A stretch of DNA of 64,000 nucleotides from Phycisphaerae bacterium (GTDB taxonomy: Bacteria; Planctomycetota; Phycisphaerae; UBA1845; Fen-1342), in the NCBI GenBank assembly GCA_963675745.2, contig CAXXWX010000015.1:352001-416000 (forward strand), written 5' to 3'. Positions 50,283 through 57,024 of the stretch are shown here, piece by piece. A model generated the notes under the pieces. It was not told the DNA's origin. It worked only from the letters and a program-made list of their open reading frames with translations, and searched no databases. The translations under genes were made by a program, and so were the position numbers. Every line of letters begins with the position of its first letter. The first letter of the stretch is position 1.

Positions 50283-50495
50283 ATGTCCAATAGCGACCGT
50301 ATCGCAATGGCTGAGGACTTGGCGAGAATCAGCACAGACCTGAGCGCGTTGCTCTCACGCCGCGAGGCGATCCCACCGCCCGTTTTTCAGATCCGCTACC
50401 AGGAGTTGAGCGAAGCGCGCAAACGGCTGGAAGCCAATATCGAACTGGACTGGGAGCGCGAACTCGCCGCCGGCAGCGCCGAGATGGTCCACTGA
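50283..50495 (+). CDS. Small hypothetical protein (70 aa, helical)
   Basis: RBS GGAGGA; TATAAT at about 50163 upstream. Confidence 0.55.
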   Translation: MSNSDRIAMAEDLARISTDLSALLSRREAIPPPVFQIRYQELSEARKRLEANIELDWERELAAGSAEMVH

Positions 50496-52016: not shown

Positions 52017-52753
52017 CGCAAACTCTCCGGGGCCGCCGGCACACTCTGCGCCAAGGCCGCCCGCTGAAGTTCGAACAACTGCTCGATCGCGCGGCGCCCG
52101 CCGGCCGTCATCGCGGCAAGCTGTGCCTCGCTGAAACTCCCAGCCTCACCCGTGGCCTGCACCTCGATCCACTCCCCCTTGCTCGACATGACCAGGTTGC
52201 AGTCCACCGCGGCGGCGACATCCTCCCGGTAATCCAGGTCAACCAGAATCCGTCCGTCAACGATGCCCACGCTGACGGCGGCGACCGCCACCACGTTGAC
52301 ATCCGCCCCCCACAGGTCGCGCCGCCGGCCTTCGGCGAGCGCGTCGCACAACGCCACGTATGCGCCGGTGATCGACGCGGTTCGCGTGCCCCCATCGGCC
52401 TGCAAGACGTCGCAATCCAGCGTGATCGTCCGCGGGCCGAGGCGCGCCAGATCCACCGCCTGACGCAGCGAGCGGCCGATGAGTCGCTGAATCTCCTGAC
52501 AGCGGCCGTCGACGCCGGTGCGGTTGCGCGGCCGGCGGCTGCCGGTCGAGCCGGGCAGCATGTCGTATTCAGCCGTGACCCAGCCATGGCCGCTGGCCTC
52601 GCGCCACGGCGGCACCGACTCATCGATGCACGCGGTACACAGCACGTGCGTGTCCCCCGCGCGAATCAGCACCGAGCCGGGGGCGGCGCTGGTAAACCCG
52701 CGATTGATCTCCAGCGGCCGTAATTCGTCGTCTTTTCGCTCATGAGATCGCAT
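52013..52753 (-). CDS. rph: Ribonuclease PH
   Basis: GSVLI, GWVTAEYDMLP, EIQRLIGRSLR, DVLQADGGTRTASITG, DLDYRED, IEVQATGE. Confidence 0.96.
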   Translation of the reverse strand: MRSHERKDDELRPLEINRGFTSAAPGSVLIRAGDTHVLCTACIDESVPPWREASGHGWVTAEYDMLPGSTGSRRPRNRTGVDGRCQEIQRLIGRSLRQAVDLARLGPRTITLDCDVLQADGGTRTASITGAYVALCDALAEGRRRDLWGADVNVVAVAAVSVGIVDGRILVDLDYREDVAAAVDCNLVMSSKGEWIEVQATGEAGSFSEAQLAAMTAGGRRAIEQLFELQRAALAQSVPAAPESLR

Positions 52754-53104
52754 GTGCGCATTGTTAACACAGCACCCGCCGCATGGCAACGACTTGCGAA
52801 AGAAGTACTGGCCAGAGCCCCGAGTCGGTCGTTCGAAGAAGCGTTAGTCGCCCCCCGAGCGCGGGCAACCACCTCCACCTCGGGCGTCCGTTGCCCCTTC
52901 CGCTGGCGGCGAGGCGACCGTACTACATGCACGCTTTTCTCCTGGCCCTTGATCTGCTCAGGAATCTAATCCCATTGCCCCGCGAAACGCTAAGGACGCG
53001 AACTTGCCGACGGGGATGTCGTATCGTATCTTAACGAGCGCGAGAACTACGCGCAACGACTTCTCGCTTTCTTCAGCGGATCGTTACCATGGTGGGTGCA
53101 AACA

Positions 53105-53875
53105 ATGGACACCGAAGAGAGCCTTGAATTCGCGAGTTTGCCACTCGTTGAAGTTGTGTTGCGGATGAGCTTCGAGCGGCCGATCGTAATGAGCTTTGAG
53201 CTCATCAACAGATTCTCTGCTGCCCTTGGTCCGGACTTTCCTGATATCACGGAGATCAAGAAGATCGAGGCAGCACCTGGGGTGAAGTTCGAGCTTGAAA
53301 TGGCCGAACTGCCAGGCGCTGTGTTTACGGGTGGTGAATCCGGGCTCCTGATCACGCTTCAGAAAAGCGTTGTTGCTGTGCGATGGCTGAAGCGCGCCCG
53401 CGGCCAGGGCACAGGGTACCCGCGTTTTCCAGTCCTAAAGGAAGCTCTGAGTCGGGCGCACACGGTGCTTGCTGGAATGGACGGGGTCGACGTGAAACCG
53501 TGCGTTACAAACATGGCGTACGTCAATCTCGTTCAGGAGGCGCCATCCGCGAGTTCCCTTCAGCGCTACTTGAGCGCAGGTTCGTTGATGCAGGTTGCTG
53601 CAGATACCGTGCGCATGCATGTACTCGAAGCGGCCTGGCAAGAAAGCGATGGCGTCGATGTCCGCTTCAGAGTTGATGCGCGGCCGCCAACCGTCGAGCA
53701 CCAAGCCGCAGCATTCACGCTGACAACCGTAGCAGGGCAGCGCATCACTCCACCAGCGGCACACGTTGATGCGGCGCTCGACGTTGTTCATCAGCGGCTG
53801 CAGAGCTTTTTCACGCGGCTGATCTCGGATCACGCGAAACAGGAGTGGGGTCTTGCGGAGAACACAAATGCCTGA
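53105..53875 (+). CDS. TIGR04255-like family protein
   Basis: FASLPLVEVV, LITLQ...VRW, YPRF, YVNL, C-terminal H...FTRLISDHAKQEWG, matching my recollection of the TIGR04255 pattern. Confidence 0.75.
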   Translation: MDTEESLEFASLPLVEVVLRMSFERPIVMSFELINRFSAALGPDFPDITEIKKIEAAPGVKFELEMAELPGAVFTGGESGLLITLQKSVVAVRWLKRARGQGTGYPRFPVLKEALSRAHTVLAGMDGVDVKPCVTNMAYVNLVQEAPSASSLQRYLSAGSLMQVAADTVRMHVLEAAWQESDGVDVRFRVDARPPTVEHQAAAFTLTTVAGQRITPPAAHVDAALDVVHQRLQSFFTRLISDHAKQEWGLAENTNA

Positions 53876-54452
53876 GCCCGCTACGACGCTCCTCGATGGA
53901 CAAGGTCAATCACCGGATCTGGCAGTGTTTGAAGCTCCGGCGGGCCGACGGGCTAGGCGACCGATGCACTACAACTCGGCTGACACCAGTACGAACACTA
54001 GTTTTCTCGCGTTTGCTTTATCAACTGAGATTGCTGAGTCCACCCAGCTTGCAAGCATCCCAGAGATGCTGGGATGCGCGTCCGCCGAGATTATTCGGCA
54101 GGTGGACAAGGATCTGGACGACGGGCTCCGCAGCATCGGCAACGCAGTCAATAGGGACCGCCTCGCGGCTGCGCGGCCGTCCTGCAAGTTGCTTGCTCGT
54201 GGCTTCAGCGGTCTTCTTGCGTTGAAACCGCGCGTCGCGGTCGCAGCGTTTGTGGACGAGGACGACGGTGTGTCGGTTGTCGCTCAGTCCTTCGCGACCT
54301 CCCGACGAGTGACAGTTGTTTTCGATGTGGGAGTTGATAGAGTCCATGTCGTGAAGGTCGATGAGGACCAACACGTATACCGGCTCGATCCCAACTACAG
54401 CCTTGAGAACCTTGGGGAGGAACTGGCTCGGTGGCTGATCGCGCGGCCCTGA
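53868..54452 (+). CDS. Hypothetical protein (candidate antitoxin)
   Basis: RBS GGAG; 8-nt overlap with the upstream gene; low-complexity N-terminus and C-terminal FVDEDDGVSV...RVTVVF. Confidence 0.65.
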   Translation: MPEPATTLLDGQGQSPDLAVFEAPAGRRARRPMHYNSADTSTNTSFLAFALSTEIAESTQLASIPEMLGCASAEIIRQVDKDLDDGLRSIGNAVNRDRLAAARPSCKLLARGFSGLLALKPRVAVAAFVDEDDGVSVVAQSFATSRRVTVVFDVGVDRVHVVKVDEDQHVYRLDPNYSLENLGEELARWLIARP

Positions 54453-54868
54453 TACCACCGACGAGTGGGGACTGGTTCATTCGTCGCAATCCGTATAACA
54501 ACGGCTTCAAGATCCGGCCAGCGGGAGTGATTGTCGCCCGCAAGGTTTTTCGTGAACGCCACGGCAGTATGTCGCTCACCCGACAGACGGAGGAACTCAC
54601 CACAGCGATGGCGTTGAGCGACTATCAGCTTGCCCACCAGTTGCCATCCGGTGACATTCCCGGTCTCTGCAAAGTGTCCTACAGAAACCTGGTTGAAGAC
54701 GTGCGCCCAGCGCTCCCCCCGCGCTTTGAGTTGGACCGCAACGATGACCGCTATGGCCATCTGCACTACGTCACAGAGCCTCCGACTGAGGATCAGCAAG
54801 AGGTGCTTGCCAAGCTCGCGAGCGAAAACGGCATCCTGCGTGGGTTTGTCGAGAGAACCGTAACATAA
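54431..54868 (+). CDS. Hypothetical protein (candidate ADP-ribosyltransferase-fold toxin)
   Basis: RBS GGGGAGGA, GTG start, 22-nt overlap; DWFIRR...F...SMSLT...GHLHY. Confidence 0.6.
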   Translation: MADRAALIPPTSGDWFIRRNPYNNGFKIRPAGVIVARKVFRERHGSMSLTRQTEELTTAMALSDYQLAHQLPSGDIPGLCKVSYRNLVEDVRPALPPRFELDRNDDRYGHLHYVTEPPTEDQQEVLAKLASENGILRGFVERTVT

Positions 54869-55122: not shown

Positions 55123-55179
55123 TGAAAAATCTTTCTGACACCTTTTTTTCTTGAAAAATCTTCCTGACACCTTTTTTTC
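55123..55179. repeat. Tandem 28-bp direct repeat (two copies), REP-like
   Basis: tgaaaaatctt(t/c)ctgacacctttttttc at 55123-55150 and 55152-55179 (one mismatch). Confidence 0.9.
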
Positions 55180-55182
55180 GGG

Positions 55183-56736
55183 TCACGGTGTGCTGGTTGT
55201 TGGTGTGCTGTGGTATAGCGTCAATTCGCTGGTCCAGCGGGTTGAAAGCGCGTGCTGTTGCGTGGATTCCGCTCGCAGCCCGGCGGCATTGGCCAGACTC
55301 GTCACAAGCTCGTCCGGCGGACCGCCAGCGGGCCCTTCAAAACGCAGAATCCACGCCGTTGCCGACGGCAGTTGATCCAACACGAACACCGGCGGCACAT
55401 CGTGCTCCAACTCCAGGTAGTACCGCAGCACCTGGTCGAACTTCGGCCCCACGGGTGGCGCCGGTGCCCCTTCCTCCGGATTCACGATCGCCACGATGTC
55501 CCCCGGCGCGAACTGCGCCGTCACCGCCCGCATCGCCGAACGCTTGTACAGATCTTCCGGCGACTTGCACCTCATGATCACATCCTTGGTCATTCCAAGC
55601 AGCGCGATACCAACCAGCACCACGCCCACCAACCCGCGCGCGCAATCGCGCGCCGGCCGTAACGAGATCCACCCCGTGACCGCCGTCACTCCCACCGCCG
55701 CCACCATGCAGATCACCGGCGCGAAGTAAATCGACACACGTACGCTGCCGCCGTAGGGATATCTGTGCAGCCAGGCGGCGACGAGCGCCGGGGCGGCCAT
55801 GCCCGCGAAGAGCAGCACCAACCAGGCCCGTCGCCGGACGACGAGCACCACCGCCCCGACGGCGAAACAAGCGGTTGTGAGAATGCTGCCATACCCCGTC
55901 CCGCCGTGCGGATACGCAAACATCCGTCCGCAGTGGATCTTCGCCAGCCAGGCCAGCAACGACCCGATCCCGTTGTGCGGCGGGAATGCGTCGCGCCAGT
56001 AAGCTTCAAGCCACGACCCCGCGCTGCGACTCACGGTGTCAGCCTCAATCACCCAGAAGAAAGCGAGGAAGCTCACCATGACGAGCGCGTTGTACACCCC
56101 CCATCCCAGCCACGCCCGTGGCTTGCCCGCGCGAATAGCCGCCGGGAGCGCGGCCACGCTCACGCCAACGCACACAAACACCGCCGGATAGCTGAGCCAC
56201 AATGACGCCGCCGCAACAACCCCGCACACCAGCGGCCACTTGACACCGGGCCGCGCCTGCCGCCAGCGCATCGCGAGGTAGATCAGCAGGGTCGCGACCA
56301 GCAGATCGCCGGCATACGGCTTTGACTCACACGTGTGCCGTACGAGGTAATAGCTGCACGCAGACACACCAACGGCGATATTCGCCGCCAGCGCTTCCAT
56401 CTGCGCCCGCGCGATCCGCCACACGAGCAGAAGTGAAGCGACCCCCGCGATCAGCGACCACGCCCGTAGCGCATACTCCCCGCCGCCGAACAGGTTGAAT
56501 GCCGTCCGCTGAATCCACAGATACAGCACCGGAGCGACCTGAAAGTAGTGCAGCGGCTCCATCAGCCCGGCGTAGTCCCGCCGCAGGATGCTGATGTTGA
56601 GATACGCCTCGTCGCCCCAGAAGGGAAAACACAGCCCGTACCGCAGCACGCGCCATCCGACGCCGAGCAGCAGCAGCGCGCACAACCATCTCCGTATGGC
56701 CACCTCCTCCGGATGATCCACGTCTGATGTCGGCAT
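55183..56736 (-). CDS. GT-C superfamily (ArnT/PMT-like) membrane glycosyltransferase
   Basis: WRVLRY...FWGDEAY, QVAPVLY, GEYALR, ESKPYA, many TM helices. Confidence 0.8.
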   Translation of the reverse strand: MPTSDVDHPEEVAIRRWLCALLLLGVGWRVLRYGLCFPFWGDEAYLNISILRRDYAGLMEPLHYFQVAPVLYLWIQRTAFNLFGGGEYALRAWSLIAGVASLLLVWRIARAQMEALAANIAVGVSACSYYLVRHTCESKPYAGDLLVATLLIYLAMRWRQARPGVKWPLVCGVVAAASLWLSYPAVFVCVGVSVAALPAAIRAGKPRAWLGWGVYNALVMVSFLAFFWVIEADTVSRSAGSWLEAYWRDAFPPHNGIGSLLAWLAKIHCGRMFAYPHGGTGYGSILTTACFAVGAVVLVVRRRAWLVLLFAGMAAPALVAAWLHRYPYGGSVRVSIYFAPVICMVAAVGVTAVTGWISLRPARDCARGLVGVVLVGIALLGMTKDVIMRCKSPEDLYKRSAMRAVTAQFAPGDIVAIVNPEEGAPAPPVGPKFDQVLRYYLELEHDVPPVFVLDQLPSATAWILRFEGPAGGPPDELVTSLANAAGLRAESTQQHALSTRWTSELTLYHSTPTTSTP

Positions 56737-57024
56737 CAAAGCCCCTGGCTACGTAGAACAACAACAGGCCTGCTAGCCAACCGCCGAAATGCCGGCCCCA
56801 CACGTCAGCCCAAGCCTGCGGCCGATGCTATCGAGCGTAGGGAGCCACAACAAGCACTCCACACGCGCCCCGCGTCGCAATCCGCGACCGCCCGCAAGTC
56901 AATATGCGCCCCCCAAGATTCGACGTGCAGCGGTGAGCACCAGACGGCATGCAAAACGCCGTCATGACCCGGCCGGGTCATGACGGCGTTGGATGGTTCA
57001 CGCGCCAGGTGCGGCAGCGCTTCG

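Follow-up and report, generated by a model that had tools for sequence, protein, structure and literature searches.

Introduction

Toxin-antitoxin-chaperone (TAC) systems, whose genes stand in the order toxin, antitoxin, chaperone, are the closest described counterparts of the locus studied here. This locus is a cassette of three overlapping genes (genes 1, 2 and 3) at positions 53105 to 54868 of a 64,000-nucleotide stretch, hereafter the window, from the genome of a Phycisphaerae bacterium. In CmdTAC (PD-T4-9) the toxin is of the ADP-ribosyltransferase (ART) type with an H-Y-[E,D,Q] triad, and the antitoxin CmdA has a disordered C-terminal tail; the addiction elements of TAC systems (ChADs) are described, in the available text of that work, as disordered, aromatic-dependent, C-terminal, and modular to the point of being graftable (PMC11618068; 10.1101/2024.02.24.581848).

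Two further entries are relevant. PDC-M32 is a PADLOC phage defence candidate that was left untested in its source, as far as the available text of that source goes (Payne et al., 10.1101/2024.01.29.577857), and it is merely listed in the literature searched, in which subscription journals were largely uncovered. DS-42 (PRO1), from DefensePredictor, consists of three genes encoding 238, 190 and 363 aa, the third being a metallo-beta-lactamase (MBL) hydrolase. It lowered Bas1 plating by 1.1 log with smaller plaques, a weak and replicated effect; DS-42 is absent from the main text, and the available part of the source gives no description of its mechanism (PMC13092281). Table S4 of the same source lists at least eight TIGR04255 proteins as predicted novel defence genes, with log-odds of 4.7-9.3 (PMC13092281). 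For TIGR04255 itself (CHP04255, IPR026349), the literature searched held no main-text mention and no role, and NCBIfam lists the function as unknown.

An initial annotation of the window read gene 3 as an ART-fold toxin, gene 2 as its antitoxin, and gene 1, a TIGR04255-like protein, as a chaperone or sensor. Our follow-up indicates that the cassette is real, conserved, mobile and horizontally inserted, that gene 1 is its constant component, and that the third gene occupies an exchangeable slot which known toxins can fill. It is likely an undescribed chaperone-controlled toxin-antitoxin (TA) system that would act against viruses.

Conservation of the triplet

Six aligned gene-1 homologues served as the query for the close family and retrieved 30 loci from metagenomes and 16 from genomes. 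Two loci in which a contig end truncates gene 1 were excluded, and the 44 kept represent 38 distinct loci, of which five with less than 700 bp downstream were set aside. Homologues of both gene 2 and gene 3 follow gene 1 in 28 of the 33 assessable loci. The other five carry a PIN toxin in the third slot, four together with gene 2 and one with a shortened gene 2. Because the homologues keep the gene order and mostly the same overlaps (mostly 8 nt and 19-25 nt), the layout is more than a product of chance. The close relatives of gene 1 come mostly from Phycisphaerae or Planctomycetota records.

Of 61 related genomes, 26 have matches to TIGR04255, at most three each. In a second phylum, the one to which a gammaproteobacterial record belongs, 32 of 401 genomes have them, whereas 14 control genomes gave no match. 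The downstream open reading frames (ORFs) were judged by eye for 30 of the 39 matches in related genomes, for 13 further planctomycete loci, and for 30 of the 37 matches in the second phylum, 73 wider loci altogether. Two coupled genes follow in 70 of them (30/30, 12/13 and 28/30, respectively); two of the remaining three have no such genes, and one is cut off by a contig edge. Since the genomes are related, these counts are not independent events. The cassette is conserved in at least two bacterial phyla, and the triplet that the initial annotation expected around TIGR04255 genes is recovered in the close as well as the wider loci. Plasmid occurrences were limited to 3 of 72,556 records (one query), and one TIGR04255 query found no relatives among the INPHARED phages.

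An exchangeable third gene

The most frequent third gene of the wider loci encodes a protein with conserved Arg, Ser and His (R-S-H), found in 40 loci (15, 12 and 13 by sample). It is followed by a protein with QGD/SCD motifs (17 loci), DUF7689 (five loci, four of them by Pfam), and a protein with an HLAWH motif (four loci). Furthermore, Pfam recognises PIN in the third slot of two wider loci and PemK in one (E 1e-18), one locus has a small third gene whose product we take to be HicA-like, and a zeta toxin fills the slot on a plasmid record. PIN, PemK and zeta belong to the classical toxins kept in check by an antitoxin, and their presence bears out the assignment of position 3 as a toxin slot. 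Gene 1 stays constant while the third gene changes, and, as judged by eye, every kind of third gene comes with a particular kind of second gene. This interchangeability of effectors across the TIGR04255 family goes beyond the initial annotation.

Some of the third genes belong to families without a name. One, of 214-233 aa with conserved His and Cys motifs, has no Pfam match (L125, L126, L127 and L129). The QGD/SCD family (L001, L003, L004, L020, L130 and L139 among others) has weak PHROG matches only; a tie of its members to PemK was considered and dropped (E 0.64), and they remain unnamed.

Gene 2 is built of two modules

The N-terminal segment of gene 2 varies from 42 to 102 aa in 32 homologues and holds one to nine aromatic residues. 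It is richer in Ser, Thr and Pro than the C-terminal part (0.27 against 0.15) and less conserved (column identity 0.36 against 0.51). The C-terminal domain is conserved over 120-130 aa, and none of the 28 loci with a gene-3 homologue lacks it.

The five close loci with a PIN toxin are informative about these modules. In all of them gene 2 has gained a common new tail, presumably the PIN antitoxin, and has kept the N-terminal segment. Four carry both old parts of gene 2 plus the tail. In the fifth, L062, the C-terminal domain is missing and the N-terminal segment is joined directly to the tail of the PIN loci; this segment scores 28 bits against the family profile, a score that none of 500 shuffles reached. 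As read from the sequence, this natural graft marks the module boundary. The PIN loci and the L062 graft therefore indicate that the N-terminal segment stays with gene 1 and that the rest of gene 2 follows the toxin. The roles proposed for gene 2, an antitoxin with a possible degron or chaperone-addiction segment at its N-terminus, agree with this pattern: the folded domain follows the third-gene type, and the variable, Ser/Thr/Pro-rich segment is retained through the PIN swaps.

Gene 3 and the ART question

Gene 3 is one of about 120 proteins that make up a family without a name. Among 108 family rows, R18 and H112 are conserved in 100% and S48 in 99%, and F40, T50 and G109 also reach 99-100%; the DWFIRR, SMSLT and GHLHY motifs pointed out in the initial annotation are all present. 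A profile of wider third genes (n=30) has the Arg and the Ser in 30/30 and the His in 29/30. Aligned with the close gene-3 family, the wider R-S-H profile reaches 86.8% with hhalign (E 4.3e-6), and it finds 72 of the 108 close members at E<0.01, whereas shuffled sequences gave none. The wider R-S-H family has 833 matches.

In the ART superfamily the first strand bears an Arg or a His, and a Ser motif lies on a later strand. At the level of sequence, gene 3 has Arg and Ser in this order; a single-sequence AlphaFold run reached a pLDDT of 38.5 and gave no usable model. The gene-3 family has no Glu column with a conservation of 85% or more, its invariant His comes late in the domain, and it lacks the catalytic Glu after the Ser motif that marks the R-S-E clade of ARTs. 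From its R-S-H motif, gene 3 probably has an ART fold.

Two other leads concern the identity of gene 3. A similarity to eIF4E (E 0.02) was dismissed as chance. A gene-3 homologue falls among unnamed clusters in the ESM Atlas, with DUF6098 at 0.93 and low recognition, which we treat as a lead only; DUF6098 (PF19593) had no main-text mention in the literature searched.

Gene 1 is a two-lobed TIGR04255 relative

Gene 1 matches TIGR04255 over its full length (E 2.1e-5), with 24.5 bits, below the cut-off of 30 bits. As 106 of 117 aligned homologues match the family at E<=0.01, gene 1 is a divergent TIGR04255 relative. The family resemblance first noted thus stands for the whole length of the protein, but the curated cut-off is not reached.

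An AlphaFold2 model built with the homologue alignment (pLDDT 93.7, pTM 0.90) predicts two alpha/beta lobes with a similar order of elements. The halves align to each other at 6.9% (E 0.005), so that only the order of elements points to an internal duplication. Foldseek on the Protein Data Bank (PDB) returned just TATA-binding protein (TBP) and AdoMetDC, at TM ~0.3. VIA-align against 48,161 chains gave a best Z of 7.6 (4wo8, root-mean-square deviation (rmsd) 3.8, 185 residues aligned) and no chain with Z>=8; TBP scored Z 6.8 (rmsd 4.7, 145 aligned). According to the tool, Z below 8 stands for a common arrangement, a level that shows no function.

A SecB-like fold, which the initial annotation considered for gene 1, did not emerge from the structure search: no SecB chain is among the best 50 VIA-align rows, which does not by itself exclude a relation. 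Pfam matched no family to gene 1, SecB included, and its halves gave E 0.36 and 0.31 against a SecB profile of five sequences, a shallow profile and therefore a weak test. In the viral structure database BFVD, the best structural match of gene 1 is A0A515MGR4, an unnamed viral protein of 202 aa (TM 0.50/0.61), possibly a phage-borne relative or mimic of gene 1.

Layout and insertion site in the window

The three ORFs were recovered at the coordinates first described (Table 1), overlapping by 8 nt (genes 1 and 2) and 22 nt (genes 2 and 3). Ribosome-binding sites (RBSs) precede genes 2 and 3, also as described, and gene 1 has a weak GGTGG only.

Table 1. Coordinates of the cassette and neighbouring features in the window
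Feature	Position	Strand	Remarks
Gene 1	53105..53875	+	256 aa; constant part of the cassette, divergent TIGR04255 relative, putative chaperone or sensor
Gene 2 RBS, GGAG	53857..53860	+	within the 3' end of gene 1; from sequence
Gene 2	53868..54452	+	ORF, 194 aa
Gene 2 N-terminal segment, residues 1-65	53868..54062	+	variable, S/T/P-rich; putative gene-1-binding, ChAD-like module
Gene 2 C-terminal domain, ~125 aa	54063..54452	+	conserved block; putative antitoxin domain against gene 3
Gene 3 RBS, GGAGG	54416..54420	+	within the 3' end of gene 2; from sequence
Gene 3	54431..54868	+	145 aa, GTG start; putative toxin, ART-like by motif
Gene 3 motif residues	R18 = 54482-84, S48 = 54572-74, H112 = 54764-66	+	family conservation
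Divergent intergenic region, rph / gene 1	52748..53104		must contain the cassette promoter
28-nt tandem direct repeat	55123..55179		two copies, 96% identical; near the GT-C gene stop
GT-C glycosyltransferase gene	55183-56739	-	PMT_2 match

The cassette stands between two genes of the minus strand, rph (Pfam RNase_PH, E 1e-29) and a PMT_2/GT-C glycosyltransferase gene (E 4.5e-10), in agreement with the position first given. The G+C content at third codon positions (GC3) is 0.63, 0.64 and 0.67 in genes 1, 2 and 3, against 0.72-0.85 in eight flanking genes, which confirms the higher share of A/T-ending codons noticed initially. Promoter and terminator scans found nothing above chance level; there was no sigma-70-like site on the plus strand of the intergenic region between rph and gene 1, and one weak site, at chance level, on its minus strand.

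Comparison with relatives points to an insertion. In two genomes of the same genus rplU and rph are 168 and 70 bp apart, whereas the distance here is 4277 bp, taken up by the cassette and the glycosyltransferase gene. A third genome of the genus has no rplU within 1.5 kb of rph, and in a genome of the same family the gap is ~850 bp. The cassette was absent from all eight rph or glycosyltransferase loci of relatives that were inspected, and BLAST found a single copy in its own genome. The GT-C gene is also absent from the relatives' rplU-rph gap, with homologues there on other contigs, and it may be a separate insertion.

Many close loci lie directly behind an ispG-like gene, named by eye (L046, L053, L057, L083, L084, L085, L086 and L026). 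This neighbourhood suggests a site occupied for a long time, or a hotspot that the copy in the window has left. The genome of the window also holds a second, distant and canonical TIGR04255 triplet (L010, G000:C19:48862-49584), with an R-S-H third gene.

The nearby repeats were described initially as REP-like. This was rejected: there is a single tandem pair and not an abundant REP family, and its 20-nt core occurs four times in the genome at up to two mismatches, the two copies of the window included. The pair contains T-runs and sits at the end of the GT-C gene. A 70-aa plus-strand ORF at 50283-50495 has no Pfam match.

Discussion

We propose that the cassette is a mirror-image toxin-antitoxin-chaperone system directed against phages, and give this reading a probability of about 0.5. 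The genes are translationally coupled, and gene 1 is made first. Its product could thus bind the N-terminal segment while gene 2 is still emerging from the ribosome, and keep gene 2 soluble and stable, so that the C-terminal domain of gene 2 can bind and neutralise gene 3. A phage protein competing for gene 1 would lead to the loss of gene 2, and the freed gene 3, putatively an NAD-using enzyme of ART fold with an R-S-H site, would arrest the infected cell. Judging from other TA-encoded ARTs, a nucleic-acid-directed or NAD-directed activity seems likelier than a protein target. The anatomy of the genes and the swaps were observed directly; from these we infer the remaining steps.

Several observations weigh against this proposal. 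Nothing in the best structural matches of gene 1 (TBP, guanidino kinases) hints at a chaperone. Furthermore, gene 1 is not obligatory for the pair it precedes, because in L095 (910-2323) a gene-2-like and a gene-3-like gene follow a different first gene, of 132 aa and without a Pfam match, which is possibly a third type of controller. In the four PIN loci with an unshortened gene 2, the old gene 2 domain persists without gene 3. Between this domain and the gene-2 proteins of the wider loci the link is faint (hhalign 4%, E 0.01; 0/32 at E<0.01). Gene 3 had no match in Pfam, PHROGs, PADLOC or the PDB sequences and no profile match to RES, and its similarity to a Tse2-family protein is marginal (hhalign E 0.42; 7 of 500 shuffles reached the score). 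Taken by itself, the gene 3 of the window has a poor score against the profile of wider third genes (E 2.7), so its link to the wide R-S-H family runs via the close family. Regarding a role in defence, the three proteins of the window matched nothing in PADLOC and cannot be counted as PDC-M32; just 2 of 27 members of the gene-3 family match PDC-M32B (E 0.033). Close-family patterns found no relatives in the viral contigs of IMG/VR, and 7 of 14 long close loci sit behind ispG and, by eye, not in defence islands.

Part of these data could also be explained if gene 1 sensed a phage molecule directly and gene 2 were an adaptor activating a silent effector, with no unstable antitoxin involved. DS-42 fits such an arrangement, combining a similar layout with an MBL hydrolase and a 1.1-log effect on Bas1 in the available data (PMC13092281). 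So does PDC-M32A, which joins a gene-2-like domain to another kind of N-terminal domain in the manner of sensor-adaptor fusions. DUF7689 and similar effectors are, moreover, not known as toxins of TA systems. However, the effectors swapped in include the classical antitoxin-controlled toxins PIN, PemK and zeta, and the new gene 2 tail arrives together with PIN, so we consider this explanation unlikely. An ordinary two-gene TA pair made of genes 2 and 3, with gene 1 as an operon regulator that binds DNA or RNA via a TBP-like sheet, appears just as improbable. TBP is indeed among the top Foldseek and VIA-align matches of gene 1, most gene-2 proteins have no recognisable DNA-binding domain, and gene-2/gene-3-like pairs occur behind other first genes. 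Yet the TBP matches are at the level of a common arrangement (Z below 8), some gene-2 proteins have a helix-turn-helix of their own and gene 1 is nevertheless kept (three loci scanned), and a pure regulator leaves unexplained why the N-terminal segment of gene 2 is retained through toxin swaps.

Finally, the cassette could be a selfish addiction or stress-dormancy module with no anti-phage role, which we regard as the least probable explanation, though it and the mirror-image system are not mutually exclusive. The patchy spread with several copies per genome (26/61 genomes, at most three matches), the plasmid occurrences and the housekeeping genes next to the cassette are consistent with such a module. 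Against it speak the low number of plasmid matches (3/72,556 records, one query) and the defence predictions for the family, namely the PDC-M32 matches and DefensePredictor.

A wider version of the chaperone-controlled system is more tentative, and we would rather doubt it than rely on it at present. TIGR04255 proteins might serve as sensor-chaperones in a second class of chaperone-addicted immunity, one that is widespread and evolved independently. It would combine a two-lobed holder, an N-terminal addiction tag that can be grafted onto whatever antitoxin is present, and six or more unrelated warheads, among them the large unnamed R-S-H ART family. If true, this would give a function to the long-unexplained TIGR04255 family, present in 26 of 61 related and 32 of 401 second-phylum genomes, and would mean that chaperone addiction as a form of phage sensing arose more than once. 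It would also draw attention to a number of toxin families without a name; one of them, the R-S-H family, has 833 matches by itself.

Comparison with known systems

The cassette resembles TAC systems, and CmdTAC in particular, in its three genes, in a third protein that stays constant while the toxin-antitoxin part is exchanged, in a second gene, here a putative antitoxin, with a modular, low-complexity tail, and in a candidate toxin that is ART-like by motif, as far as these systems are described in the available text (PMC11618068; 10.1101/2024.02.24.581848). The order of the genes is reversed, a mirror image of TAC. Furthermore, the variable segment of gene 2 is N-terminal, whereas the TAC tag is C-terminal in the available description, and gene 3 has R18, S48, T50 and H112 instead of the H-Y-[E,D,Q] triad of CmdT. 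Since two tested features, the C-terminal tag and the CmdT triad, fail, we do not file the cassette as TAC. Of the TAC-like system with a different gene order that was first suggested, the reversed layout holds, but closeness to CmdTAC itself does not, given the R-S-H triad, the N-terminal segment and the lack of a SecB match in Pfam. SecB acts as a tetramer, and its model has 141 positions; gene 1, by contrast, is two-lobed, has 256 aa and no Pfam match.

Among toxins, gene 3 is comparable to the Tse2 type (ADPRTs_Tse2; PDB 5ako). Tse2 is a secreted interbacterial effector with an R-S-H triad; gene 3 has Arg, Ser and His in the same order, and its His aligns with that of the Tse2 family. The spacing differs, and there is no significant profile match.

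DS-42 has a similar three-gene layout, but its third gene, as given in the available data, encodes a 363-aa MBL protein, whereas gene 3 has 145 aa and no Pfam match, so that the cassette does not belong to DS-42 (PMC13092281). The initial annotation left room for an already catalogued system, which the PADLOC scan of the window's proteins did not reveal. The link to PDC-M32 runs through the wider relatives, whose best matches to PDC-M32A and PDC-M32B have E 2.4e-9 and 3.6e-10: M32B is matched by 5 of the 23 wider third genes scanned, and M32A, in its C-terminal third, by 3 of 10 second genes. PDC-M32 itself has two genes, the 375-aa M32A fusing a gene-2-like domain to a different domain of 250 aa, and TIGR04255 proteins have no match to it. 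In one genome (L091:1498-2652) the N-terminal domain of PDC-M32A forms a fusion with a gene-2-like domain; in two others (L092 and L093) it is fused to a short tail and a PIN-like gene follows. With such different partners, it also swaps warheads.

Gene 1 is a divergent branch below the curated cut-off of the TIGR04255 family, but it matches the family over its full length and shares the operon layout found family-wide. If the role proposed for the TIGR04255 proteins is true, it could also explain PDC-M32, and perhaps DS-42.
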